A stretch of 64,000 bases of DNA from Nitrososphaeria archaeon (GCA_029775855.1 JARVJZ010000004.1:64001-128000), one strand, 5' to 3'; numbered from the stretch's first letter, positions 12,154 through 37,613 are shown. Numbers and translations are program-made. Notes: a model not told the origin generated them from the sequence alone.

Positions 12154-12489
12154 ATGAGCGCTGCAGAGGTCTTAGCCGAAATGCCTGAGAGTTTTATACC
12201 CAAGGTCTGTAGAGTCTTTAGCAATCCAACTCGATACAAAATACTTTTGCTACTAGACAAAGAGCCTAGAACATTCACAGCCCTAATGAAGATGCTTACA
12301 GTCAACCCTAAGGTCTTAAATGACCACCTTAACACGCTAATAGCAAACAAGCTTGCAGCCAAATCCTATGCATATAATGTATATACATTAACTCCGCTAG
12401 GTCGTTTGGTAAAGGAAGCGCTAGCTGAGATGAACAACAAATTAAAAGAACCTTTAAAAACCTTGGCTCAGTGGGAGGGATTAGGATGA
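12154..12489 (+). CDS. ArsR-family winged-helix regulator
   Basis: FSNPTRYKILLLL...LNDHLNTL...YTLTPLG. Confidence 0.85.
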   Translation: MSAAEVLAEMPESFIPKVCRVFSNPTRYKILLLLDKEPRTFTALMKMLTVNPKVLNDHLNTLIANKLAAKSYAYNVYTLTPLGRLVKEALAEMNNKLKEPLKTLAQWEGLG

Positions 12490-12533
12490 GGAAGCTAGAC
12501 CAAAGCAGCCTCACGATAAGGAGGGATTAGAAT

Positions 12534-13994
12534 ATGCTTCTTGAATGTGACCCAAGTAAACTTAGAATAGAAACAATAGGTGTTGAGAAGCCCAACTTCC
12601 CGATGGACATAGGCGAGATGTATGAAGGCGAACGCATACGCCGCCCAGATATGCAGGTGGAGTTTGGAGGCGTTGATGTACCAAAAAAGTGGGAAATCGT
12701 CCTCACAAGAAAACCAGAAGAAATAGAAGATGGCAGAGTGATACTAATCGGACCAGACCTAAATGAACTAAAGCAAGGCGGCACCTACCCGCTAGGAATC
12801 TTAGTAGAGGTTGCTGGTGAGAAGGTTGAAAAAGACTTAGAGGGTGTGCTGGAGAGAAGAATACACTACTTCCTTAACTACATAGAAGGCGTTATGCACC
12901 TAAATCAAAGATACGATATATGGATTAGAATAGGGAAGAAAGTCTATCAAAAAGGACTGAACTCGCTAGCTTGGCTAGGTAAAGCGCTGATATGGCTCTA
13001 TAAACAGAGCTTTCCAGTAATAGAAAAGATACAAGTGAGCCTAACAACCGACCAACAAACGATAGAAAAGTTCTACCCATATGCGCTAGAAGTGTGGGCT
13101 GCAAGGGACAAACGCGCCAGAGAACTAAAAGACGAAGATGTAGAAGAATTCTACGGCTGTGTTATGTGCCAATCATTTGCACCCACACACATGTGTGTGA
13201 TAACACCTAACCGCATAGCGTCTTGCGGCTCAATAAGCTGGTTCGATGCAAGGGCAGCGTCAAAAGTAGATCCGAAAGGACCCAACTTCCCCATTCCTAA
13301 AGGGGAGTGCATCGACCCTATCAAGGGCATCTACACAGGTGTAAACGAGATTATATCTAAAAAGTCCCTCGGAAGCATAAAGCAAGTCGCGCTTTACACA
13401 TCTTTTGAAACACCACACACATCCTGCGGCTGCTTTGAGGGTATAGCCTTCTACATACCTGAAGTAGATGGTATAGCGATAGTTCACAGAGACTTTAAAG
13501 GACCTACCGTAAACGGGCTGACTTTCTCGAATATGGCTGAGCATACTAGCGGCGGCACGCAAAACCCAGGCTTCAACGGAATAGCGATAGAGTACCTTAG
13601 GTCACCTAAGTTCCTACAAGCAGATGGGGGCTGGGAGAGAATAGTGTGGATACCTAAGGCGATAAAAGATAGAGTTGGAGACAGCATACCTCAACATATG
13701 AAAGATCTAATACCAACTGAGCAAGAAGTCAAAAATATAGAGGAGTTGAAGTCTTGGCTAAAGAGTAAGAATCATCCAGTCGTTAAACGCTGGAAGCAGG
13801 TTGCTGAAGAAAAGGCGCCTGAGGTGAGAAAGGAGGCATTTGTGGAAGCCGCACCTGCTGAACTTGTGCCAGCAACAGTAGTGCCTGAAGGCTTATCCGT
13901 CCCGATAGGCGGAGGCTTCATCATCATCTTCAAGAACGCTAAGATCGTGGCTGAAAAGGTCATAATAAAGCGTGCGGAGAAGGTAGGGAAATAG
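12534..13994 (+). CDS. cdhC: Acetyl-CoA synthase (ACDS beta subunit)
   Basis: YEGERIR, EGVLERRIH, FYGCVMCQSFAP, HTSCGCFE A-cluster ligands, DGGWERIVW. Confidence 0.97.
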   Translation: MLLECDPSKLRIETIGVEKPNFPMDIGEMYEGERIRRPDMQVEFGGVDVPKKWEIVLTRKPEEIEDGRVILIGPDLNELKQGGTYPLGILVEVAGEKVEKDLEGVLERRIHYFLNYIEGVMHLNQRYDIWIRIGKKVYQKGLNSLAWLGKALIWLYKQSFPVIEKIQVSLTTDQQTIEKFYPYALEVWAARDKRARELKDEDVEEFYGCVMCQSFAPTHMCVITPNRIASCGSISWFDARAASKVDPKGPNFPIPKGECIDPIKGIYTGVNEIISKKSLGSIKQVALYTSFETPHTSCGCFEGIAFYIPEVDGIAIVHRDFKGPTVNGLTFSNMAEHTSGGTQNPGFNGIAIEYLRSPKFLQADGGWERIVWIPKAIKDRVGDSIPQHMKDLIPTEQEVKNIEELKSWLKSKNHPVVKRWKQVAEEKAPEVRKEAFVEAAPAELVPATVVPEGLSVPIGGGFIIIFKNAKIVAEKVIIKRAEKVGK

Positions 13995-13995
13995 G

Positions 13996-15195
13996 ATGGC
14001 TGGCGGGAATGATGATATTAATGAGCTAGTCAAGAAGGTAGCTGACCTCGTGCAAAAATTTGAAGAAATCGAAATAGAAAATGTGGAGCTGTCAACAGAA
14101 GAGCTACGCATTATAATCCAACCTCTTGTCCAAACCGCAATTAAACGCGCTGAAGCAGCATTAAAGGTTGAAGAAAAACCCCCTGAACTTATTAAAGCAA
14201 CATTTACACCCTACCTAGAAAAGTTCCACGGACAGATCGCTGAAGTTCAACTTGGTGCTACAAAATCTGAAGGCGGGACAAGAGGGAAGACGCTGAAAAT
14301 CGGTGGAGAGAAGACGATGCCCTTCTACAGCTTTGAAGCATCTAATCCGAATAAACCCGTCTTCGCTATGGATGTGTTCGATATGCCCATTACTTTAACC
14401 AAACCTGTTAAGCAGATGGTAGAGGATGTTATGCACGACCCTGCTGAGTGGGCTAAGAAGTGTGTAAATAAGTATGGTGCGCAAGTTGTTTCACTTAATT
14501 TGGTGAGCACAGATCCGCTCCTTGAGGACAGACCTATTCAGCAAGCTATGAAGAGCGTTGAAAATGTCCTTCAAGCGGTGGATGTGCCTATAATCATTGG
14601 AGGCTCAGGTAATCCTCAGAAGGATCCATTAGTGCTTTCTGCTGCTGCGGAAGTAGCACATGGAGAAAAGGTGGTGCTGAACTCAGTTACTATTGAGATG
14701 GATTATAAGAGGGTTGTGAAGGCTTGTAAGGAGCACGGTCATGCACTAGTTTCTTTTACACCAATGGATGTGAATAATCAGAAGCGGCTTAATCGCTTAC
14801 TGTTAGATGAGGGGCTACCGAAGAATCAGATAGTCCAAGATCCAACTACAGCTGCATTAGGGTATGGTTTAGAATACGCCTTCAGCTTAGAGGAGCGAAT
14901 AAAGCTCGCTGGGCTGATGGGTGATGAGGATCTGCAGATGCCGATTTTAGCTGCTGCAAGCAACGCATGGGGTGCTCGTGAATCATGGATGAAGGTTGAG
15001 GAGTGGGGGCCTCGTGAGATAAGAGGGCCGCTTTGGGAGACTGTAACTTGTGTAGCGCTTATGATGGCTGGTGCAGACTTATTTATGATAAGTCATCCTG
15101 CTACGATTAGGGTTGCTAAGAAGCTTGCGGACAGCCTCTTTGGCGAAGGTGTCTGTGAGCAGAAGATAGAAAATTGGATCACGAGCCTAAAGTAG
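13996..15195 (+). CDS. cdhD: Corrinoid Fe-S protein small subunit (ACDS delta)
   Basis: LGATKSEGGTRG, GGSGNPQKD, DPTTAALGYGLEY, NAWGARESW. Confidence 0.96.
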   Translation: MAGGNDDINELVKKVADLVQKFEEIEIENVELSTEELRIIIQPLVQTAIKRAEAALKVEEKPPELIKATFTPYLEKFHGQIAEVQLGATKSEGGTRGKTLKIGGEKTMPFYSFEASNPNKPVFAMDVFDMPITLTKPVKQMVEDVMHDPAEWAKKCVNKYGAQVVSLNLVSTDPLLEDRPIQQAMKSVENVLQAVDVPIIIGGSGNPQKDPLVLSAAAEVAHGEKVVLNSVTIEMDYKRVVKACKEHGHALVSFTPMDVNNQKRLNRLLLDEGLPKNQIVQDPTTAALGYGLEYAFSLEERIKLAGLMGDEDLQMPILAAASNAWGARESWMKVEEWGPREIRGPLWETVTCVALMMAGADLFMISHPATIRVAKKLADSLFGEGVCEQKIENWITSLK

Positions 15196-15207
15196 GAGGG
15201 TAAGGGC

Positions 15208-16623
15208 TTGGCTAAGCCAACACTCCTAGATGTCTATAAGTATCTACCTCAAACAAACTGTGGTGAATGCGGAGAAGTAAACTGCATGTCGTTTGCGTCT
15301 AAGCTTCTCGAGAGGCGTTATAAGCCTTCAGACTGCCCACCACTGGTAAAAGAGTCAAAATACAAGGATAAGATGGCAGCGCTAACGAAGCTTGTCGCGC
15401 CACCAGTTAGGGCTGTGGTGATAGGTAAAGGCAAAAATGCTGTAACCATAGGTGGAAAGGAGGTTATGTATCGCCACGAACTAACACTACATAACCCCAC
15501 AGCTATAGCAGTAGATGTCTCAGATTTAGACCCACCAGAACTCATTGAAGAAAGGTGCAAGAAGATCGAAGGTTTCAAGGTTATAAGAATAGGAGATGAA
15601 CTTAAACTTAACCTAGTAGCTGTTAGAGCAGCTTCTGCGGATCCTAGCCGTTTTGAGAAAGCAGTCGAGATCGCCGCAAAGAGCTGCAGCTACCCCATGG
15701 TGTTGTGCTCTTTTGACCCCACGATTTTAGCAGCTGCATTGCGGAAGCCTGAGGTTGCTGACTCAAGACCTTTACTTTATGCAGCTACGAAGGATAATTG
15801 GAGGGAGATGGTTGTTCTAGCAAGGAAATATAACTGCCCTATTGTAGCGTTTGAACCTGGCGGATTGGATGAGTTAAAGTCTCTAGCCTTAACAATAAAG
15901 GCTAATGGTGTTGAAGATATTGTGCTAGACCCAGGAACTTATACTGACGGTGCTGGTTTAAGGGACACCCTTAACAAATTTGTTATGATTAGGCGCGCTG
16001 CCATAAAAGCGGGGGATGAAGGGTTAGGTTACCCTATCTTAGGCGTACCCGCTATCACATGGCTTGATGGAGGTGAAGACCCCGTTAAATCTTACGAGGA
16101 AGCCTATCTTGCTGCGGTTATGATGGCACGCTCAGCAGACATACTGATACTTCATACATTACAACCCTATGCTCTGCTAGCCTTAACAACACTTAGGCAG
16201 AACCTCTACTCAGACCCTAGAAAACCAGTTGCGGTCGAGCCGGGTTTAAGAACATTCGGTAGACCTAGCGAAGATTCTCCTGTACTTGTGACGACTAACT
16301 TTGCCCTAACATACTACACTGTGGCAAACGATATAGAGTCACAAGGGAACAACTGCTACTTGCTAGTTGCTAACACAGGCGGCTTGGCTGTAGAATGTAG
16401 TGTAGCTGGAGGTCAGTTCAACGCATCCGTTGTGAAAAATCTTATTGATGAGACTAAGATAGAGACTAAAGTTAAGCACCGCATTCTAATCATACCTCAG
16501 CTCGCCGCAAGGCTAAAGGGTGATATTGAAGATACTACCCAGTGGGAGGTAATTGTAGGCCCGAGAGACTCCTCACAGATAAGGGACTTCCTTAATAAGA
16601 ACTGGCCGCCACAAAAGAATTAG
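15208..16623 (+). CDS. cdhE: Corrinoid Fe-S protein large subunit (ACDS gamma)
   Basis: LPQTNCGECGEVNCMSFA...CP, YRHEL, TTNFALTYYTV, VGPRDSS. Confidence 0.96.
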   Translation: MAKPTLLDVYKYLPQTNCGECGEVNCMSFASKLLERRYKPSDCPPLVKESKYKDKMAALTKLVAPPVRAVVIGKGKNAVTIGGKEVMYRHELTLHNPTAIAVDVSDLDPPELIEERCKKIEGFKVIRIGDELKLNLVAVRAASADPSRFEKAVEIAAKSCSYPMVLCSFDPTILAAALRKPEVADSRPLLYAATKDNWREMVVLARKYNCPIVAFEPGGLDELKSLALTIKANGVEDIVLDPGTYTDGAGLRDTLNKFVMIRRAAIKAGDEGLGYPILGVPAITWLDGGEDPVKSYEEAYLAAVMMARSADILILHTLQPYALLALTTLRQNLYSDPRKPVAVEPGLRTFGRPSEDSPVLVTTNFALTYYTVANDIESQGNNCYLLVANTGGLAVECSVAGGQFNASVVKNLIDETKIETKVKHRILIIPQLAARLKGDIEDTTQWEVIVGPRDSSQIRDFLNKNWPPQKN

Positions 16624-16652
16624 GTGACACATTTACGAGCTTCCGGTATAGG

Positions 16653-17060
16653 GTGGAGATCAGAAACCCAGCGAGATGCATAGGATGCTACAGCTGTGTG
16701 TTCGCCTGCTCAAGACACCTATTTAATGTAGTAGACCCCACGCGCACAGCTGTCTTTGTGGAGCTGGATCGCAAAGGTGGAAGAGCTCCTAAGGTAAGTA
16801 TGTGTAGGTTCTGTAAGGAGCCTGAGTGTGCCTACGCTTGCCCTCACGGTGCTCTGCAACCCCTTCCAGAGGGGGGTATCACACTTACGCCTTCTAAATG
16901 TGCCCCTTGCACAACTTACGATTGTGTAGAAGCGTGTCAGTATAAGGTTCTTGTGCTCGATAGGGAGAAGAAGATACCTATACTGTGTGATAGATGTGGT
17001 GATTGCGCAAAGTATTGTCCTCACAATGTTTTTTGGTATACGGAGGCTCCTGGAATATGA
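16653..17060 (+). CDS. Multi-[4Fe-4S] ferredoxin (AOR small subunit / CooF-like)
   Basis: CIGCYSCVFAC, CRFCKEPEC-x3-CP, CDRCGDCAKYCP; ATGA overlap with the next gene. Confidence 0.9.
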   Translation: MEIRNPARCIGCYSCVFACSRHLFNVVDPTRTAVFVELDRKGGRAPKVSMCRFCKEPECAYACPHGALQPLPEGGITLTPSKCAPCTTYDCVEACQYKVLVLDREKKIPILCDRCGDCAKYCPHNVFWYTEAPGI

Positions 17061-18874
17061 ATAGTAGAGTTCTTTATGTTGATCTATCTGAATGCAAGAG
17101 TCGAGTTGAAGATAGGCGGGATCTATTCGAGAGTATGTTAGGTGGTGTAGGTGTTGCTTCACAAATACTTCTAGAAGAGAGCAAGCCACGCATAGACCCC
17201 TTCTCACCAGAAGCCCCAATAATATTTGCAACAGGACCTTTAACAGGCATATATCCGTGCATGGCTAAAGCGGTCGCGCTTTTTAAGTCTCCTCTTACTG
17301 GGAATTTGGGTGAAACGCATGCTGGTGGACACTTCGCAACCGCTTTAGCTACAGCAGGATACGGTGCACTTGTAATAAAAGGAAGCGCTCTACACCCTCA
17401 GGTACTTAAGATACGTGATGACAGGGTTGAGTTGAAGACAGCCTCCTCTCTTTGGGGGCTTGGGACAAGGGCGGTTGATGAAGCATTAGCTGAGCCGATT
17501 AAAACTGGTTTACAGAGCATAGCGGCCATAGGTCCGGCTGGCGAGCATATGGTACTCTATTCAAATGTTATAGTAGACCTTCACCACCATTTTGGAAGGT
17601 TAGGTTTAGGTGCGGTTTTAGGAGCTAAGAAGATTAAGGCTATTTCAATCATCGGCACCAAGAGCATTACACTAGAAAAACCTAACGCTGTAAAGGCGTT
17701 TTACGAGAAGATTGAGCACGAAGTTGTCGCTACAGATAAGATGTTGAAGTATCACAATTTAGGCACACCTAGTAACGTGCTTGAATTAAATGCGTTAGGC
17801 GCTTTACCTACTCGAAACTTTCGGGAAAGGAGATTTGAAGGCGCTGAAGAGATGTCTGGAGAAAGATTCGCTGAGACTGTGTTTAGGAGGAAGGTTACTT
17901 GCACTAACTGCCCAGTAGCATGCATACATCTAGGCGCATTTACAAAGAGTTTCGCACCGGAGCACGAGCGTGGTAGAAGTGAGATTATTAAGGAGGAGTT
18001 GGTTGTTGCATATAACTATGAACCTATGTTCGCACTAGGTTCAAACCTTGGAATAAGCGAACCAAGCCGTATACTTGAACTCATTGAGTTATGCGAAGAT
18101 CTGGGCTTAGACGCTATGATGACAGGCTCTGTTTTAGCGTGGGTGACTGAAGCTTGTGAGAGAGGGGTGTTAGACGAAAAAATTCTTGGAATTAAGCCAA
18201 AATGGGGTGATCCTGATAATATTTACCCGCAGATGATTAGAAGGATAGCCGAATCTAAAGACCCCTTCTATGCAAAGCTTGCCCAAGGTCTAGTCAAAGC
18301 TTCAGAGAGATATGGAGGTAATGAGTTTGCAGCCTCTCTAGGTGGGAACAGCCCAGCAGGCTACGCCACAGGCTATGGGCACATAGTGGGAACCCTTGTG
18401 GGAGCAAGGCATTCCCATCTCAGCAACTCAGGCTACTCCATAGATCAGCAGATAATATCAGGAAAAGCTAAGGTTGACGATATAGCAGAGTTTCTGGTGA
18501 GGCAAGAGAATTGGCTCTATGTGCTTTATTCTCTAGTAGCATGCTACTTTTCAAGGAGTGTGTATACTCCTGAGTATGTGGTAGAGGCTTTAACTACTGT
18601 AGGTATAAACACAACCAAGGAGGAGTTGGAGAAGCTGGGAATGAAGGTCTTTCATAATCTCTACAAGTTTAAGATGCAAGAAGGCTTCGACTTAGAGAAG
18701 CAGTATATACCTAAGCTTCTTAAAGAGCTCGATACACCAATCGGAAGATTAGAGCCACAAACGTTAAACAAGATAGTTAAGAGGTATATAGCTCTAAGGG
18801 AGAGAGAAGGGTTAAAAATAAGTAGAGAGGAGAAAACATTAGCAGACCTACTTCTCCCTTCAGATAAAGATTAG
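17057..18874 (+). CDS. Aldehyde:ferredoxin oxidoreductase family (W-pterin) enzyme, variant clade
   Basis: KSPLTG, IGPAGE, GRLGLGAVLGAKKIK, CTNCPVAC, DLGLD, SLVACYF; ATG 17057 overlaps the ferredoxin stop. Confidence 0.9.
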   Translation: MNSRVLYVDLSECKSRVEDRRDLFESMLGGVGVASQILLEESKPRIDPFSPEAPIIFATGPLTGIYPCMAKAVALFKSPLTGNLGETHAGGHFATALATAGYGALVIKGSALHPQVLKIRDDRVELKTASSLWGLGTRAVDEALAEPIKTGLQSIAAIGPAGEHMVLYSNVIVDLHHHFGRLGLGAVLGAKKIKAISIIGTKSITLEKPNAVKAFYEKIEHEVVATDKMLKYHNLGTPSNVLELNALGALPTRNFRERRFEGAEEMSGERFAETVFRRKVTCTNCPVACIHLGAFTKSFAPEHERGRSEIIKEELVVAYNYEPMFALGSNLGISEPSRILELIELCEDLGLDAMMTGSVLAWVTEACERGVLDEKILGIKPKWGDPDNIYPQMIRRIAESKDPFYAKLAQGLVKASERYGGNEFAASLGGNSPAGYATGYGHIVGTLVGARHSHLSNSGYSIDQQIISGKAKVDDIAEFLVRQENWLYVLYSLVACYFSRSVYTPEYVVEALTTVGINTTKEELEKLGMKVFHNLYKFKMQEGFDLEKQYIPKLLKELDTPIGRLEPQTLNKIVKRYIALREREGLKISREEKTLADLLLPSDKD

Positions 18875-18894
18875 AGGAGGAGGTGAAAAGAAAC

Positions 18895-19239
18895 TTGTGT
18901 GAACTTAAGGTGTCTTTAAAGGAGGACGGCAAGTCGGTAGAGGTTGCGCAAGATGTGATCTACGTTAAGCTATCTGAGCAAAATCTCATATTGAGAGATG
19001 TTTTAGGCAGCTCTAAGATCGTTGAAGGCGCGTTAGTTGAGGAGCTCGATATATCTAAAGAGAGCCTAATCCTCCTTAAATCGCCTCTGCTCACCAAGGT
19101 GGCAAGATTCCTTAGTATACTTAACGCATCTATTTCCACCAGAAGATATGACCAAAGCATCGAAGCAGCTTGGGAGGATGTTAAGGCTGAAGGCGATAGA
19201 TGCATCAGAGAAGCGTGGAAGATGGGTAGGAAAGGTTGA
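18895..19239 (+). CDS. cooT: CooT-family nickel chaperone with C-terminal extension
   Basis: TTG after GGAGGTG gives MCELKV (Cys2); LILRDVLGSSKIVEG pattern; beside cooC. Confidence 0.75.
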   Translation: MCELKVSLKEDGKSVEVAQDVIYVKLSEQNLILRDVLGSSKIVEGALVEELDISKESLILLKSPLLTKVARFLSILNASISTRRYDQSIEAAWEDVKAEGDRCIREAWKMGRKG

Positions 19240-20027
19240 CTATTTCAATAGCAGTTACTGGGAAAGGTGGAGTGGGTAAGACTACCATAGCAGCCCTACT
19301 AGTCAAAACTATCCACGATAAAACTGGTGAAATAGTGTTAGCAGTCGACGCAGACCCAAACTCAAACCTACATGAGGCTCTAGGTGTAAAGGCGGGTAAG
19401 AGCATAGGGGATATACGCGAAGAACTGCTAAAACTAGGAGAACAAATACCCCCGGAGCAGGGAAAGGCAGATTATCTCGAAGGATTGATAGAAGGCGCTA
19501 CTGTAGAAGGCGAAGGTTTCGACTTAATCAGCATGGGTAGGCCAGAAGGACCAGGCTGCTACTGCTACGTTAACCATCTGCTTAGAAAGGTGCTTGATAA
19601 AGTTAGTGAAAGATATAAGTTTGTGGTTATAGATGCTGAGGCTGGATTAGAGCACTTCAGCAGACGCACTACTAGAGATGTTGATATTCTTATTGTGGTC
19701 TCAGACCCTACTGCACGTGGATTTATGACGGCTAAGAGGGTTAAGGAACTTGTGTCTGAGCTTAACACAAAGTTTGGAAAGATGTATATGGTGGTCAACC
19801 GAGTGCCTCAGAGCTTCGCTGACAAGGTTGCCGAAGAGGCTGCTAAAGTAGGAATAGAATGCATAGCACTTATACCTGAAGATGAATTAGTAGCGGAGTT
19901 CGACTTAGCGGGCAAACCTCTGACATCACTACCACCAGACTCTAAAGCATACCAAGCAATTCAAAAGATTGTCGAGAAGCTACCGCTTAAAGAAGCGGAG
20001 CAGACGCTCTGGTGGCAGAAGATTTGA
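19236..20027 (+). CDS. cooC: CooC/AcsF nickel-insertion ATPase
   Basis: GKGGVGKT, DADPNSNL, MGRPEGPGCYC, DAEAGLEH. Confidence 0.92.
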   Translation: MTISIAVTGKGGVGKTTIAALLVKTIHDKTGEIVLAVDADPNSNLHEALGVKAGKSIGDIREELLKLGEQIPPEQGKADYLEGLIEGATVEGEGFDLISMGRPEGPGCYCYVNHLLRKVLDKVSERYKFVVIDAEAGLEHFSRRTTRDVDILIVVSDPTARGFMTAKRVKELVSELNTKFGKMYMVVNRVPQSFADKVAEEAAKVGIECIALIPEDELVAEFDLAGKPLTSLPPDSKAYQAIQKIVEKLPLKEAEQTLWWQKI

Positions 20028-20818
20028 AGATAGCAGTAGCGGGTAAAGGTGGTGTAGGCAAGACCACAGTGAGCGGCGTATTAGCGAGGGCGATGGCACG
20101 CCGTGGGTATAAGGTTCTTGCAATAGATGCTGACCCCGCGATGAACCTATGGCTATCTTTAGGTGTGCCAAAGTCAGCCTTGACCAACATTACACCCTTA
20201 TCTGAAAATGATAACCTAATAGAAGAACGCACTGGTGCAAGACCCGGATCCATAGGTGGAGTCTTCAGCTTAACACCTAAAGTTAGTGACCTCACTGACA
20301 AATATGGTATCACGGGTCCTGATGGTGTTACCCTTCTGGTATTAGGTACGGTTAAGTCTGCTGGTGGAGGATGTATGTGCCCAGCTAACGCTCTTCTTAA
20401 AGCGCTTCTACGCCACCTTCTATTAGATAGAGAAGATGTTGTTGTGTTAGATATGGAGGCTGGGTTAGAGCATCTAGGTAGGGGTGTTGTAAAGGGTGTT
20501 GATGTACTTCTGGCTGTGGTTGAGCCTAGCTATAGATCTATTGAGACAGCCTTCAGAGTGAAGAAGTTGGCGCAAGACCTTGGTGTTAAGCGCGTTTATG
20601 TGATTGGTAATAAGATTAGTCGGGATGAAGAAGCCTTTTTTGTTAAGAGTGAGACAGAGAAGCTAGGGATGAATCTTTTAGCCAATATCCCCTTAGACCA
20701 AGCTATACCTGCTGCTGAAATGGCTGCGCTGTCACCCATAGACTACGCCCCAGCCTCACCGGCGGTAAAAGCGATTGAAGGTCTAACTCACCGTCTTAAG
20801 GAGATAATAGCTAGCTGA
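20012..20818 (+). CDS. cooC: Second CooC-family nickel-insertion ATPase
   Basis: GKGGVGKT, DADP, GGGCMCP, DMEAGLEHLGRG. Confidence 0.92.
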   Translation: MAEDLKIAVAGKGGVGKTTVSGVLARAMARRGYKVLAIDADPAMNLWLSLGVPKSALTNITPLSENDNLIEERTGARPGSIGGVFSLTPKVSDLTDKYGITGPDGVTLLVLGTVKSAGGGCMCPANALLKALLRHLLLDREDVVVLDMEAGLEHLGRGVVKGVDVLLAVVEPSYRSIETAFRVKKLAQDLGVKRVYVIGNKISRDEEAFFVKSETEKLGMNLLANIPLDQAIPAAEMAALSPIDYAPASPAVKAIEGLTHRLKEIIAS

Positions 20819-20820
20819 AC

Positions 20821-21846
20821 ATGCCTATGCAGCAAGCTAGGGAAGGAGACTTCATAGAACTCGACGAATACTCTATCTTCGAAGTAAAGGGTCTAAGCCA
20901 CCCATCTTATGGAGTGATAGCGTATCCACGCTACCTACCTAGCGAGAGAGGGGTGAGGATAAGATGTGGCAGAAGGTATCTGAGGCTTTACACCTTTGAA
21001 GAGAGGGAGAAGGTGCTTAAAGGGAGGTTCGCGCAATACTACACCTTTAACCCCTACTACAATAGACTGCTGCCTATAATACCTTGGGGCAGAGTTCAAA
21101 GACACTTCAAACCACAAGATATGGTTAGAGTGTTAAGAGCATCACACAATCTTGCTGGTTTAAGACTAAAGGTGCTGGAGTTCATCGAATATATCTCCAG
21201 AGAAGCGGATGTGCCAACAGATAACCTTGGTATATCAGGCTCCATTTTGCTTGGGTTAGAAGAAGAGAACTCTGACATAGACTTAATCGTGTACGGTCTG
21301 AAAGAATCAGCAAAGGTTAGGGAAGCAATCTTAAACGCTATGGCTGAAGGAAGCGTTTTACGGACTCTCACAGAAGAGAGGCTAAAAGAGCTCTATCTAT
21401 TCAGATCAAGGGATACGGCTATGCGCTATGAAGATTTTAAAAGGGTTGAGCAGAGGAAGAGCAACCAAGGTCTCTTTAAAGATACACTCTTCTTCGTCAG
21501 ATATCTTAGAGAGTGGAGCGAGGTAGAGGAGCGGTATGGTGAATATTCGATTCGAAGATTAGGATACGGTAAGATATATGCTAAAGTTGCTGACGCAAAT
21601 GAAGCACATATGTGCCCCGCAATCTACATCCTAAAAGATGTTACCTTGCTCTCAGGTCCGAGCTGGACAACTATAGATAGGCTAATTACGTGGCGAGGTA
21701 GGTTTGCTGAACAAGCATCTGAAGGCGAAGCTATCGTTGCGCAAGGATTTATGGAGGAAGTATTATTTAGAGATAGAGTGGTTAAGCAGATGGTGGTAGG
21801 TGAAGAGCGCTATGACACCATCCTACCAAAGTGGCGAGAATTATAA
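20821..21846 (+). CDS. Archaeal Pol-beta-superfamily nucleotidyltransferase
   Basis: GISGSILLG...SDIDL motif; N-terminal FEVKGLSHP...YPRY. Confidence 0.75.
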   Translation: MPMQQAREGDFIELDEYSIFEVKGLSHPSYGVIAYPRYLPSERGVRIRCGRRYLRLYTFEEREKVLKGRFAQYYTFNPYYNRLLPIIPWGRVQRHFKPQDMVRVLRASHNLAGLRLKVLEFIEYISREADVPTDNLGISGSILLGLEEENSDIDLIVYGLKESAKVREAILNAMAEGSVLRTLTEERLKELYLFRSRDTAMRYEDFKRVEQRKSNQGLFKDTLFFVRYLREWSEVEERYGEYSIRRLGYGKIYAKVADANEAHMCPAIYILKDVTLLSGPSWTTIDRLITWRGRFAEQASEGEAIVAQGFMEEVLFRDRVVKQMVVGEERYDTILPKWREL

Positions 21847-34176: not shown

Positions 34177-36093
34177 TTAGTCAGCGAGTTTACCGTATGA
34201 GGCTAGATCGTCTGCAACATATTTTAAATCAAGGCGCTCCAAGGTGCTTCTTTTAGGTATTCCCGTTTTTTTATCCCAACCTCTAACCTCATAGTATTCA
34301 TCTAGCATAGGCTCTAACTCCACAATTGAGCCAGCTGATGGACCGCATTCTGGTGGTAATGGCTCTTTAAGGAAGCGTTCTGGTAGAGTATCATCTTTTC
34401 TTGTTATGCCCTCTCTTACGACGAAAGCGCGCTCTATGTTTATGATTCTCTCACCCATTTGTAGAACATCCCTAGGCGACATATCCCAGCCTACTGCAGC
34501 TTTAAGAAGCCTAGAGGCAACTTCTTCTAACTCATAATATCTTGGTGCACCATCTAGCATGGCGGATATGTTCTTACACATAGTTAGTGAGTCAGCTAAG
34601 GCTGCGCATTCCTCATAGTATTTGACTACTCTCCCCTTAGCCTTATACTCCAATCTAAAGGCTGCTTCTTTAGCTCCAAATCTCTTCACAGCCAATTCAG
34701 CATTATTTGAGAATTCAAACATCGGTTCTGCTCTTAGGTGATCAGCACCTCTGCTCGAGACCGCGTAAGTTAATGCGAAGGCTTTCATTCCTCTAGGTTC
34801 TCCCGCTATAATTTCAAGCCCTTTTACTTGAGCTGCGAGCTTGTCTGCACCCTGCCCTACAAATTCGCCGAACTTCTTTGCACCGTAAGCCATCTTCTCA
34901 CCTATTCCCTTTTTATATGCGATCATATCGATTAATGTCAGCACAGCTTCTGCATTACCCCAAGTTAAGTCCAGACCACCTAGCTGCTCTTTGGTAAGAA
35001 GACCTCGCTCATAACACTCCATAGCTAATGCTATCACCTCACCAGTCGTGATAGAGTCCATTCCATATCTGTTCAGTTTATCATTAGCCTTCAAGATGGC
35101 TTCAATATCATCTACACCACATCTCGAACCTATAGAGCCAAGCGTCTCGTATTCTGGGCCTTCACCAGCTAACCCAGCGAACCTTCCACTCTTTATGACG
35201 TAAAATCTGCTACATGGAAGCGGACATGAGCCACAAGCCTTAACCTTAACATTATAGTGGTCGCGTAAGGTTTCTCCGCTTATCTTATCTGCACCTTCAA
35301 ACACACCTGTCTTAAAGTGGTAAGATACTAAGAATCCTAGTTGATTAAGTGGGTTTACAAGCCTGGTGGAGCCCATGGTAGAGCGCCCAACATAGTCTGG
35401 TGAAGAGTAGATCTGCTCTTCGATTTCTTTTACGATCTTATCAAATTCGTCGTAATCAGCAACTTCAACTGGCTTCGTTCCCCTAACTACGATCGCCTTT
35501 AGGTTCTTAGAAGCCATTACTGTACCCATACCCGTCCTTGCAGCGATTCGGACTAAACTCGTGACCACTCCAGCGTATGATACGCCGTTTTCAGCAGCGG
35601 GGCCGATGCAAGCTACCTTAGCATCGCTATCGCCAACTTCCTCCTTCAGTAGCAGATCTGTTTCCCACACATCTTTTCCCCAGAGGTGGGATGCGTCTTT
35701 AATCTCTACAGTGCCGTCAAAGATCTTTAGGTAGATTGGTTTAGGTGCTCGCCCCTTTATTGCAATCTGGTCTAATCCAGCGTATTTGACTTCTGGTCCG
35801 AAGAAGCCTCCTGCGTTTGCATCTCCAAGTATGCCTGTGTGTGGTGACTTTGCTGATACTGTGAATCTGTTTGAACCTGAGCATATAGTTCCTGTTAGTG
35901 GCCCTACGCCTATTATCAGCACGTTTTCTGGGCTTAGTGGGTTTACATTAGGGTTTACTTCTTCAAAGAGCGTAGCTGAGTTAAGTCCTCTCCCGCCTAG
36001 GAACATTTTGAGCTGTGCTTCACTTATATCCTCTAAACAATAGTCTCCTCTAGATAGATCTACCCTTAGCCTCCTACCAGCATATGCCTTCAA
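34177..36093 (-). CDS. aor: Aldehyde:ferredoxin oxidoreductase (canonical W-AOR family)
   Basis: KSPHTG, CIGPAAE, CGSCPLPC, GPEYET, RGADHL, DSLTMC, DDTLPERF, YYEVRGW; TTG 36093 likely start. Confidence 0.93.
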   Translation of the reverse strand: MKAYAGRRLRVDLSRGDYCLEDISEAQLKMFLGGRGLNSATLFEEVNPNVNPLSPENVLIIGVGPLTGTICSGSNRFTVSAKSPHTGILGDANAGGFFGPEVKYAGLDQIAIKGRAPKPIYLKIFDGTVEIKDASHLWGKDVWETDLLLKEEVGDSDAKVACIGPAAENGVSYAGVVTSLVRIAARTGMGTVMASKNLKAIVVRGTKPVEVADYDEFDKIVKEIEEQIYSSPDYVGRSTMGSTRLVNPLNQLGFLVSYHFKTGVFEGADKISGETLRDHYNVKVKACGSCPLPCSRFYVIKSGRFAGLAGEGPEYETLGSIGSRCGVDDIEAILKANDKLNRYGMDSITTGEVIALAMECYERGLLTKEQLGGLDLTWGNAEAVLTLIDMIAYKKGIGEKMAYGAKKFGEFVGQGADKLAAQVKGLEIIAGEPRGMKAFALTYAVSSRGADHLRAEPMFEFSNNAELAVKRFGAKEAAFRLEYKAKGRVVKYYEECAALADSLTMCKNISAMLDGAPRYYELEEVASRLLKAAVGWDMSPRDVLQMGERIINIERAFVVREGITRKDDTLPERFLKEPLPPECGPSAGSIVELEPMLDEYYEVRGWDKKTGIPKRSTLERLDLKYVADDLASYGKLAD

Positions 36094-36103
36094 GAATAAT
36101 CGC

Positions 36104-36598
36104 CTACTTCTTGACACCCCAGCTTCTTAAGATAGAGCGTGAAGCCGCTTCAGCTGACTGAGTTGATTTGGTTTTCGCTGCCTCCGTCAGAGTTATGTAT
36201 CTGATAGCCTCAGTTGGGCATCTAGCCACACAAGCAGGGTTGCCGGAGCAGAGATCACAGACAATTGGAAGCCTAGTCCTAGGGTGAAGCACAATAGCTC
36301 CAAATGGGCAAGCTTCTACACAAGCCCCACACATTATACATATCTCGGACTTTAGAAGCACAATATCAGAGCCTTGTGTGCGAAAGAGTGCACCGACTGG
36401 GCAAGCCTCGATGCAAGCTGCTTTACCGCAGAATCTGCAGACCGAAGGGTAATCTAACCCTATGGGTTCAACCTTGACTACCTTTATTCTTGATATGGCT
36501 GGGTCGAAGACTTGTTCGTGGGCTGCGCTACAAGCTACTTCACAGAGTCTACAGCCAGTGCACTTTCTTGGGTCTGCTACTATCCTTCCCTTCTCCAA
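36104..36598 (-). CDS. Four-cluster [4Fe-4S] ferredoxin (AOR partner)
   Basis: CTGCRLCEVAC, CRFC-x4-C-x3-CP, CIMCGACVEACP, CDLC-x5-C-x3-CP. Confidence 0.92.
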   Translation of the reverse strand: MEKGRIVADPRKCTGCRLCEVACSAAHEQVFDPAISRIKVVKVEPIGLDYPSVCRFCGKAACIEACPVGALFRTQGSDIVLLKSEICIMCGACVEACPFGAIVLHPRTRLPIVCDLCSGNPACVARCPTEAIRYITLTEAAKTKSTQSAEAASRSILRSWGVKK

Positions 36599-36605
36599 AA
36601 TTACA

Positions 36606-37613
36606 TTACTTCTCCATTTCTCTAAAGTATGGGATTACATACTTACCGAGTAGCTTGACTGATTCTTCTGGGTCTGGCCCTAGGGGTGCACCTATTGAGA
36701 TGTGTTGTAGCCCCTTCTTCTGAAGCATCTCGATCTTTGCTATGCAGTCGTCTGGTGTTCCTCTTATGGCTAGATTAAGCATCTTATCAGTAACGAGTTT
36801 AGCTGCTGCATCTAAGCCTTCTTTACGCCAGACTTCTTGAATTGGTTCAAAGTCCTTGTGGCTTAGCCCTATAGTCGATAGACCTAGTTCTCCGAGCATG
36901 GGTCCGAAGTATGCGACTAGCTTGCGGAGAGGCTCTTCAGCTACTTCGCCCTTCTTTGATATGGAGAGCCATACACATCCTGCAACATCGACCTCTGAGA
37001 AGTCTCGCCCGACTTCTCTTGCACCAGCCTTCATACGCTCCATCGCTATATCTATGAATTCTGGTGGATATAATATGGGTAGGACGCCATCACCATATGC
37101 TCCACTATAAGCTAGTAGCTTTTCTCCTTGACCACCTATGTATATTGGTATCTTCTTCTTATATTGGTCGAAGCGCATATAGCATTCTGAGCTCCACTTG
37201 ATCTCCTTACCGTTATATGCAGCGTTTTCTCCAGCCCAAAGTTTTCTTAGAACCTCAACAGTCTCCTTAACTCTGGTTAATGGTCGCTCGTGTTCTATTC
37301 CAAGCCATCTAAGGTATTCTAAGGCGCCAGCGCTTAGCCCGCAGAGTGCTCTTCCCTTCGTGTATTCGTCGAGCGCGGAGAGATACATGGCTATTTCAGC
37401 TGGGTTGGTTGTGTATGGGTTTAGTATCGTGTTGCCTAGGTAGACTTTCTTCGTCTGCGCACCTATTATGGTCAGAGTGACCATAGAGCTTCTCATGAAG
37501 ATGTCGTGGCTCACCCAGACCGAGTCAAAACCATTCTTCTCAGCTAATACGCCTAGCCGAACCATATTCTCGACGCTGCCGAACCAATCACACATTCTTA
37601 AGCCGAACTTCAA
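36606..37613 (-). CDS. LLM-class oxidoreductase, Mer-like, probably F420-dependent
   Basis: AEKNGFDSVWVSHD, NPYTTNP, IPIYIGGQG, GAPLGPD. Confidence 0.85.
   Translation of the reverse strand: MKFGLRMCDWFGSVENMVRLGVLAEKNGFDSVWVSHDIFMRSSMVTLTIIGAQTKKVYLGNTILNPYTTNPAEIAMYLSALDEYTKGRALCGLSAGALEYLRWLGIEHERPLTRVKETVEVLRKLWAGENAAYNGKEIKWSSECYMRFDQYKKKIPIYIGGQGEKLLAYSGAYGDGVLPILYPPEFIDIAMERMKAGAREVGRDFSEVDVAGCVWLSISKKGEVAEEPLRKLVAYFGPMLGELGLSTIGLSHKDFEPIQEVWRKEGLDAAAKLVTDKMLNLAIRGTPDDCIAKIEMLQKKGLQHISIGAPLGPDPEESVKLLGKYVIPYFREMEK

Follow-up and report, generated by a model that had tools for sequence, protein, structure and literature searches.

A predicted WorSL-type tungsten oxidoreductase pair in a split archaeal acetyl-CoA decarbonylase/synthase operon of a Nitrososphaeria archaeon

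Gene content of the cdhC-D-E operon

The DNA considered here, referred to as the window, is a stretch of 64,000 nucleotides from a Nitrososphaeria archaeon (GCA_029775855.1, JARVJZ010000004.1:64001-128000; within its genome G000 the stretch is G000:C4:64001-128000). The genome comprises 1,507,471 bases in 6 contigs and is 98.44% complete. Positions 12154-21846 of the window carry ten genes on the plus strand, separated by intergenic gaps of -16 to +44 nt, among them cdhC, cdhD and cdhE of an archaeal acetyl-CoA decarbonylase/synthase (ACDS) as well as a ferredoxin gene and a gene of the aldehyde:ferredoxin oxidoreductase (AOR) family. A first-pass annotation, made from the sequence alone, had regarded this operon as an acetyl-CoA synthase (ACS) module that works independently of carbon monoxide dehydrogenase (CODH). 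The gene order given there, ArsR-cdhC-cdhD-cdhE-ferredoxin-AOR-cooT-cooC-cooC followed by an open reading frame termed ORF341 in the following, was borne out by family searches, and the spacing between ArsR and cdhC is indeed 44 nt. The ten genes are as follows.

12154..12489, plus strand: ArsR/SmtB-type winged-helix regulator, first gene of the operon (HTH_5, 30.1 bits; cut-off 22)
12534..13994, plus strand: cdhC, ACDS beta subunit (acetyl-CoA synthase, A-cluster; TIGR00316, 624.3 bits; cut-off 355.95)
13996..15195, plus strand: cdhD, ACDS delta subunit (corrinoid Fe-S protein small subunit; TIGR00381, 476.3 bits; cut-off 252.9)
15208..16623, plus strand: cdhE, ACDS gamma subunit (corrinoid Fe-S protein; NF003195, 581.2 bits; cut-off 306)
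16653..17060, plus strand: WorS-type polyferredoxin of 135 aa with four predicted [4Fe-4S] clusters (Cys motifs, solved relatives)
17057..18874, plus strand: WorL-type protein of the tungsten aldehyde:ferredoxin oxidoreductase family, 605 aa (AFOR_N, 223.5 bits; AFOR_C, 209.8 bits)
18883..19239, plus strand: cooT-like nickel chaperone (PF10133, 38.5 bits; cut-off 27)
19236..20027, plus strand: cooC1, CbiA/MinD-type ATPase (CbiA, 63.7 bits)
20012..20818, plus strand: cooC2, CbiA/MinD-type ATPase (CbiA, 66.1 bits)
20821..21846, plus strand: ORF341, 341 aa, possibly of nucleotidyltransferase fold (sub-threshold NTP_transf_2)

CdhC aligns over its full length with the beta subunit of a solved archaeal ACDS (9c0s_E, 522 bits), and all of its Cys motifs match this protein residue for residue; the A-cluster ligands are intact, as had been described earlier. 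CdhE features the N-terminal [4Fe-4S] domain (Pfam FeS, residues 13-45). The AOR gene most likely starts at ATG 17057 and not at TTG 17003, with a GGAGG motif at 17042-17046, about 10 nt upstream. This start codon overlaps the stop codon of the ferredoxin gene as ATGA, and the two genes appear to be translationally coupled. Homologs of the ArsR regulator lie upstream of the cdh operon in the families f1 and f12 and in many metagenome loci. Two RNA libraries from a single study gave contigs (90-100% identity) that overlie parts of nine of the ten genes, i.e., ArsR, cdhC, cdhD, cdhE, AOR, cooT, cooC1, cooC2, and ORF341, and single contigs bridge the ArsR-cdhC, cdhC-cdhD, cdhD-cdhE, and cooC2-ORF341 junctions. 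The RNA run X4 yielded zero contigs on the operon and some parts of it are devoid of such cover, neither of which is evidence of absence.

The family f6 exhibits the gene order cdhC-D-E-cooC1 ... cdhA-cdhB-cooC2. Since cooC1 follows cdhC-D-E and cooC2 follows cdhA-cdhB there, the former is assigned to ACS and the latter to CODH. Judged by this synteny, cooC1 probably encodes the AcsF-like insertase providing nickel to the A-cluster of ACS, and cooC2 probably encodes the nickel insertase for the C-cluster of CODH. The designation of the last gene as a nucleotidyltransferase is weak: a match to NTP_transf_2 exists but stays below the threshold (18.4 bits, cut-off 21), and no family was assigned to ORF341 at E <= 0.001 in the family search. 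Its Atlas language-model look-alikes, at 0.98, belong to clusters in which 22-49% of the members have NTP_transf_2. Homologs of ORF341 (28-37% identity) adjoin cooC2 in the loci L109, L111, L112, L117, and L128, an adjacency which also persists in the case of an inverted cooT-cooC block 6 kb away from the AOR gene. ORF341 may represent an unrecognised maturation accessory.

CO dehydrogenase genes outside the window

The statement that cdhA, cdhB, and cooS are missing from the 64-kb window is correct: whole-genome searches with PF03063, TIGR00314, and PF02552 gave zero cut-off-passing matches on contig C4. The genome harbors, however, two full-length, stop-free cdhA genes on other contigs, one at C6:87328-89598 (TIGR00314, 1182.1 bits) and one at C1:60901-63162 (1074.7 bits; cut-off 781.3 for both). 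Each is accompanied by cdhB (PF02552; TIGR00315, 119.5 and 122.4 bits, cut-off 101.2), and the resulting cdhA-cdhB pairs span G000:C6:87328-90145 and G000:C1:60358-63162. Nothing beyond these two cdhA genes was retrieved by the PF03063 search of the whole genome. Between the two CdhA proteins, the identity amounts to 53%. The C6-type shares 65-75% identity with the in-operon CdhA of f6, G038 (f12), and f34, and the C1-type shares 64-70% identity with that of f19, f8, and G014/G028 (f12); both types are old isoforms.

Among G000 and 40 relatives, cdhA and cdhC co-occur in the same 13 of 41 genomes. Moreover, complete operons are found in related families, i.e., ArsR-cdhA-cdhB-cdhC-cdhD-cdhE-Fd-AOR-cooT-cooC1-cooC2 in f12 (all three genomes; Fd, ferredoxin) and cdhA-B-C-D-E-Fd-AOR in f19 (G021). 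Apart from cdhAB, which immediately precedes cdhC in both families, these operons are collinear with that of the window. In the genus of the window, ArsR directly precedes cdhC in all four genomes whose contigs extend to this point, and the same junction occurs in nine of ten metagenome contigs at 80-83% AOR identity (L102 begins within cdhC, and no ArsR match was seen in L103) as well as in the more distant contigs L104 and L115. The cdhAB genes have therefore left the operon in this lineage. A single cdhABCDE operon, which is typical but not essential for archaeal ACDS, is thus absent here, with cdhAB located on C6 and C1 and cdhCDE on C4, and the split arrangement is shared by congeners.

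Such a split layout is already known. In Archaeoglobus fulgidus, two unlinked cdhAB pairs and a separate cdhCDE occupy three loci (AF1100-1101, AF2397-2398, and AF0376-0379), and the pathway, which is of the tetrahydromethanopterin (H4MPT) type, is expressed and working (PMC3949148, in part). In contrast to the window, where WorSL, cooT, and two cooC genes follow cdhE, the accessible part of this source mentions neither an AOR nor a polyferredoxin for the cdhCDE of A. fulgidus. A 2026 preprint on ACDS describes the archaeal complex as lacking the stable CODH/ACS architecture of bacteria (PMC13370988, in part), which fits the genetic separability of cdhAB from cdhCDE.

Taken together, the locus is almost certainly part of a normal, CODH-dependent archaeal ACDS with relocated cdhAB genes. 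An acetyl-CoA module that dispenses with CODH and uses free CO directly, as initially suggested, would agree with the lack of cdhA, cdhB, and cooS in the window and with a regulator abutting cdhC across a gap of 44 nt. It is hardly credible in view of the two intact cdhAB pairs, the matching presence of cdhA and cdhC across 41 genomes, the cdhABCDE operons of f12 and f19, the retention of cooT and a CODH-type cooC2, and an identical split layout that works as CODH/ACS in A. fulgidus (PMC3949148, in part). The caveat of the first-pass annotation, according to which cooT and a CODH-type cooC could indicate a CODH elsewhere, proved to be justified. That annotation had named two observations as contrary to its view, namely an intact, co-expressed cdhAB or cooS elsewhere in the genome together with a variable AOR placement; intact cdhAB pairs were found, whereas the placement is strongly conserved.

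Next to one of the cdhAB pairs, divergent from cdhA on C6, lies a gene for the large subunit of a molybdenum hydroxylase family protein (L011:4772-7162), matching glyceraldehyde dehydrogenase alpha with 673 bits and aerobic CO dehydrogenase with 623 bits, both below the cut-offs. A LarA-like nickel-pincer racemase homolog is encoded beside it.

Identity and conserved placement of the WorSL pair

The polyferredoxin encoded directly after cdhE features four Cys motifs with 16 Cys residues that are invariant across 37 orthologs. Among solved structures, it comes closest to WorS of the A. mobile WorABCSL enzyme (9mqx_E; profile match of 54.9 bits over the full length), AorA (8c0z_C), and the small subunit of WOR5. 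The AOR protein likewise scores best with 9mqx_D (236.5 bits) and the P. furiosus AOR 1aor_A (233.7 bits), scores lower with the formaldehyde oxidoreductase 1b25 (181 bits), and is less close to AorB, FOR, WOR5, and BamB than to 9mqx_D and 1aor. All 12 of the 12 aligned clade members share C282, C285, C289, C496, E322, and H454, which align with the Cys ligands of the [4Fe-4S] cluster and with the active-site Glu and His in a comparison based on P. furiosus residue numbers. The first pterin motif is conserved, and the region of the second one differs from the P. furiosus AOR. Clade-specific residues flank both catalytic positions, namely N320 and S456 (Asp in the sister clade in both cases), and there is an insertion around E304. 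Because of the Cys motifs, the conserved active-site residues, and the best solved relatives of both subunits, the pair is assigned to the WorSL-type tungsten oxidoreductases, with the tungsten content of the WorL-type subunit being predicted from its sequence.

As in P. furiosus WOR5, A. aromaticum AorAB(C), and A. mobile WorABCSL (6x1o, 8c0z, 9mqx; PMC12318220, in part), a large subunit of the AFOR fold with one [4Fe-4S] cluster is thus combined with a four-cluster small subunit that provides wiring to a partner. In that source, as far as accessible, WorS is regarded as a four-cluster wire docking WorL onto different partner modules. Unlike the solved WorSL enzymes, the pair described here belongs to a clade of its own and possesses a shorter WorS (135 aa compared to 152-192), and its genomic partner is ACDS or Fwd instead of a Bfu or FAD module. 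Seven AOR-family frames occur in the G000 genome. The AOR of the window shares 42-49% identity with the Fd-AORs of its sister clade, and its identity to the solved WorSL enzymes is lower than that, judged from the 234-236 bits.

The placement of the AOR gene was surveyed in genomes and metagenomes, bearing in mind that related genomes and sequences are not independent observations. The families f1, f12, and f19, with AOR identities of 54-83%, all show cdhC-D-E-Fd-AOR in the same collinear order, and a contig scan with the AOR returned two loci, both from one metagenome-assembled genome of the same genus. In a sample of 400 genomes of the phylum plus G000, homologs at E <= 1e-140 were present in 98 of the 401 genomes, none of them exceeding 49% identity. 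Within flanks of 1.5 kb, cdh genes adjoin AOR in six of 29 new loci; wider flanks revealed cdhA-B-C-D-E convergent with AOR-Fd at a distance of about 10 nt in f34, and Fd(...)AOR-cdhD'-cdhE' in f46 and f55. A comparison of coordinates by hand added six genomes of f28, resulting in 12 AOR-adjacent genomes out of 98 with cdhE, from four families. In an IQ-TREE phylogeny of 49 AORs, a single branch separates the 12 cdh-adjacent sequences from the others (SH-aLRT 90; subclades 100 and 99), and none of the 32 sister-clade Fd-AORs, including the C2 paralog of G000 itself, has cdh genes within 1.5 kb. Likewise, all 41 cdh-adjacent AORs of a FastTree phylogeny of 96 sequences fall into one clade of 59 rows with a support of 94.

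A metagenome contig scan using the clade alignment delivered 80 loci, 79 of which were classified and 61 of which were evaluable, as 18 more end too near the gene to tell. The genes cdhC, cdhD, or cdhE lie within 400 bp of the Fd-AOR unit in 53 of the 61, in at least six arrangements including convergent ones. Seven of the eight evaluable loci without such adjacency belong to a nested subclade (12 tree rows, support 100) that lacks the ferredoxin partner. Each of the 13 contigs of this kind (L136-L147 and L160) has AOR behind Mch, with FwdB-FwdA-FwdC upstream wherever the flank suffices; in these seven loci, AOR ends a fwdB-A-C-mch operon. The eighth exception (L172) shows cdhE about 5 kb upstream and cooT/cooC downstream. 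With 53 cdh-adjacent loci, seven in fwd-mch operons, and L172, all 61 evaluable loci are therefore situated within Wood-Ljungdahl gene clusters. The AOR placement is thus strongly conserved, in cdh or fwd operons. It is probable that the embedded Fd-AOR pair is not accidental and that WorSL serves as an accessory linked to the pathway. Owing to this conservation, the second idea of the first-pass annotation, i.e., that a tungsten enzyme would link the redox chemistry of aldehydes or C1 compounds to the pathway, is better founded than before.

Two further features of these loci are worth recording. A second corrinoid pair, cdhD'E' (34-48% identity to CdhD and CdhE of the window), adjoins AOR in L088, L089, L149, L153, L155, L158, L159, and the f28 genomes, either apart from or beside the main cdhCDE. 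In most of L136-L147 and L160, a MobA-like gene lies convergently downstream of AOR.

Role of the WorSL pair in archaeal Wood-Ljungdahl operons

The ATP-dependent reductive activator of corrinoid proteins (RACo) is found in acs/cdh gene clusters. In operons without AOR, a RACo gene (with Fer2, RACo middle, and RACo C-terminal domains) is located beside cdhE, as in G007 (f5), G008, and G024 (f6). Examples inside archaeal cdh operons are L053:4497-8462 (G007) and L054:8074-9972 (G008), the G007 gene lying between cdhE and the cooC genes and being flanked by two DUF166 genes and a gene for a B12-binding protein. At least 18 of the 98 cdhE-bearing genomes in the phylum sample, contributing 11 further families, have RACo no more than about 3 kb away from cdhE, and none of the 12 AOR-adjacent genomes has it near cdh among the matches listed. 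RACo is likewise missing from all fetched AOR-cdh loci, which included flanks of up to 10 kb, and was not found in the genomes of G000 (PF14574), three congeners, and G010, or, among the matches listed for the phylum sample, in G202 and f46. None of the operon proteins contains a Fer2, RACo middle, or RACo C-terminal ASKHA domain. An anticorrelation of RACo and cdh-linked AOR at the genome level was considered and rejected, as all three genomes of f12 and both genomes of f19 possess both. The RACo genes of f12 and f19 adjoin other corrinoid methyltransferase genes, and in a tree of 14 sequences their products group (90/93) with non-cdh paralogs of G007, the deep nodes being without resolution.

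WorSL thus resembles RACo in its position next to cdhE, which RACo takes in related operons, and in being a redox accessory aimed at the corrinoid protein. It differs in being unrelated in sequence, without ASKHA ATPase or [2Fe-2S] domain, and in that its driving force would be a low-potential substrate and not ATP. By analogy, the two may be functionally equivalent.

Regarding the metabolic context, the genome encodes FwdB (562 bits), Ftr (190 bits), Mch (419 bits), and a Mer-like protein (224 bits, below cut-off), and the methyl branch is of the H4MPT type and looks complete; a search of the genome detected neither FTHFS nor MTHFR. A formaldehyde bypass enforced by a missing methyl branch is ruled out by the presence of Fwd, Ftr, and Mch, and a replacement of FwdB by AOR in the fwd-mch operons is ruled out by FwdB just upstream. 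No conserved gene for an alcohol dehydrogenase, an acetyl-CoA synthetase, or another aldehyde-pathway protein was detected beside AOR in the operon types inspected. In one operon type, a DUF3786 gene (L109:11862-12497) directly follows AOR; DUF3786 was not found in the G000 genome, which carries little weight since the control genomes were matchless too. About 4 kb, occupied by genes on the opposite strand, separate ftr (C2:74716-75618) from the Fd-AOR paralog of the sister clade (C2:78838-81044) in G000 (G000:C2:74716-81044). A second WorSL-like unit is encoded on the minus strand of the window (34177-37613), beside a luciferase/Mer-like gene, as follows.

36606-37613, minus strand: luciferase/Mer-like oxidoreductase, the best Mer match of G000 (224 bits, below cut-off)
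36104-36598, minus strand: polyferredoxin of 164 aa, second WorSL-like unit
34177-36117, minus strand: AOR-family protein of 646 aa, second WorSL-like unit

This unit could be an F420-linked alcohol/aldehyde route or another C1 link.

The reading we favour, albeit tentatively, combines a CODH-dependent ACDS with a low-potential electron module, WorSL, which is dedicated to the pathway. CdhC, CdhD, and CdhE would constitute the ACS/corrinoid part of this ACDS, accompanied by genes for nickel maturation. WorL would oxidise an aldehyde to the acid at a very low redox potential and pass the electrons from its tungsten cofactor via its [4Fe-4S] cluster to the four clusters of WorS. The reverse direction, with WorSL as a sink for reduced ferredoxin, may also occur. 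The potential of the aldehyde/acid couple is near -580 mV, and those of CO2/CO, CO2/formyl-methanofuran, and Co(II)/Co(I) are near -500 to -530 mV. The two enzymes by which the pathway reduces CO2 in a ferredoxin-dependent manner are products of the cdh and fwd operons. Since these operons are the hosts of the AOR gene, its commonest neighbour is the corrinoid protein, and the slot is elsewhere taken by a corrinoid activator, a role of WorSL in low-potential electron supply or reactivation is suggested, which ranges from conceivable in its general form to rather doubtful as it is stated more specifically. The most specific version would have the WorSL clade hard-wired to the archaeal Wood-Ljungdahl machinery, where aldehyde/acid electrons would support CO2 reduction by CODH and Fwd and the reactivation of Co(II) to Co(I) without ATP or bifurcation, with WorSL taking over both the slot and the job of RACo; in this strong form the proposal is doubtful.

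Several points weigh against the favoured reading. RACo homologs occur elsewhere in most of the AOR-linked genomes (f12, f19, f34, f28), and AOR therefore need not replace RACo. The mutual exclusivity is positional, with seven AOR and 13 RACo families and an overlap of zero, which is borderline: the family-level hypergeometric value of about 0.05 is a rough estimate assuming about 40 cdhE-bearing families, and the exclusivity is suggestive only. Moreover, many cdhE-bearing genomes have neither module next to cdhE; in f31, cdhE is present in 24 of 25 genomes and RACo in one of 25. In the Mch-linked AOR subclade, neither WorS nor an adjacent cdh gene is present, a point against a role specific for the corrinoid protein. 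The patterns of the metagenome scan were derived from the cdh-linked clade, so that its recovery is biased toward that clade, and the RNA-library contigs are compatible with DNA carry-over and do not prove a single transcript. Finally, the substrate, the direction of electron flow, and a physical or electronic contact with ACDS are presumptive, electron transfer between WorSL and ACDS is putative, and the physiological source of the aldehyde is hypothetical. A co-fold of CdhE with the polyferredoxin, run without controls, scored 0.01 and 0.00 compared to a mark of 0.32 and counts neither way.

Acetogens perform a CO- or ferredoxin-driven reduction of acids through AOR. In line with this, WorSL could detoxify aldehydes in general or dispose of ferredoxin electrons by reducing acids (e.g., acetate to acetaldehyde), sharing the regulator and the ferredoxin pool with ACDS without being coupled to it. 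All catalytic features of AOR are retained, the nearest solved relatives are broad-range AORs, and the genome holds the seven AOR-family frames mentioned above. Still, this explanation is unlikely, as an aldehyde-pathway gene conserved beside AOR is missing from the operon types inspected, and as the 32 sister-clade Fd-AORs are never cdh-adjacent while this clade almost always resides in a cdh or fwd operon despite rearrangements and strand changes. A narrower function in C1 metabolism, as in the C1 option of the first-pass annotation, would make WorSL a formaldehyde/formate:ferredoxin oxidoreductase for the H4MPT methyl branch, which either scavenges formaldehyde released from methylene-H4MPT at high temperature or allows an entry from formate to formaldehyde. 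It would be consistent with conserved neighbours that all handle H4MPT- or methanofuran-bound C1 units (CdhD/E, Mch, FwdA/C, and a Mer-like gene) and with N320, S456, and the insertion in the E304 region, which fit an altered substrate pocket. However, the methyl branch looks complete without WorSL, the AOR matches the solved broad-range AORs better (236 and 234 bits) than the formaldehyde oxidoreductase 1b25 (181 bits), and in the fwd-mch operons AOR is appended with FwdB being kept, so that this function, too, is rather unlikely.

The adjacency might also be a relic, i.e., a single insertion placed AOR in an ancestral Wood-Ljungdahl supercluster, where it has been retained since without any function in the pathway. 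Wood-Ljungdahl genes do cluster broadly, as seen for cooC2-fwdC-mch in L047 and for fwdA-C-mch a few kb from cdh in f34, and the linked AORs all belong to one clade, for which a single origin is possible. Against this, the adjacency has outlasted at least six rearrangements and AOR identities down to about 44%; the rearrangements include the convergent position about 10 nt from cdhE, the pairing with the paralogous cdhD'E', and the transfer to the fwd-mch operon. A purely historical linkage is accordingly regarded as quite improbable.

In the open-access literature (main texts, supplements excluded), no publication was found that places an AOR or WorSL within archaeal cdh or fwd operons. The Wolframiiraptor paper does not touch on the Wood-Ljungdahl pathway, CODH, or cdh; an open-access article found to pair AOR with cdhC and cdhE refers to aor only as an acetate-to-acetaldehyde gene in Actinobacteria, and none was found which joins aldehyde, tungsten, corrinoid iron-sulfur protein, and reductive activation. 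The closest parallel in archaea is given by the ethane oxidisers Candidatus Ethanoperedens and Candidatus Argoarchaeum, where aor genes are co-located with methanogenesis-pathway, i.e., C1-pathway, genes and highly expressed, their role being described as unresolved (PMC7175092, in part). These organisms feature an alkyl-CoM reductase and a proposed ethyl-to-acetyl role of AOR (PMC7175092, in part), whereas no MCR alpha subunit was found in the genome studied here, and the analogy to alkane oxidisers was rejected.

The corrected reading keeps the locus from being filed as a CODH-free acetyl-CoA synthase. Besides, a tungsten enzyme that is kept in cdh and fwd operons across many lineages of the Thermoproteota represents a concrete candidate which bears on the question of how the corrinoid protein of ACDS is held in its active Co(I) state. 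If this holds true, ACDS or Fwd would be a third kind of partner module for the WorSL "plug-in" oxidoreductases, after the Bfu and FAD subunits.

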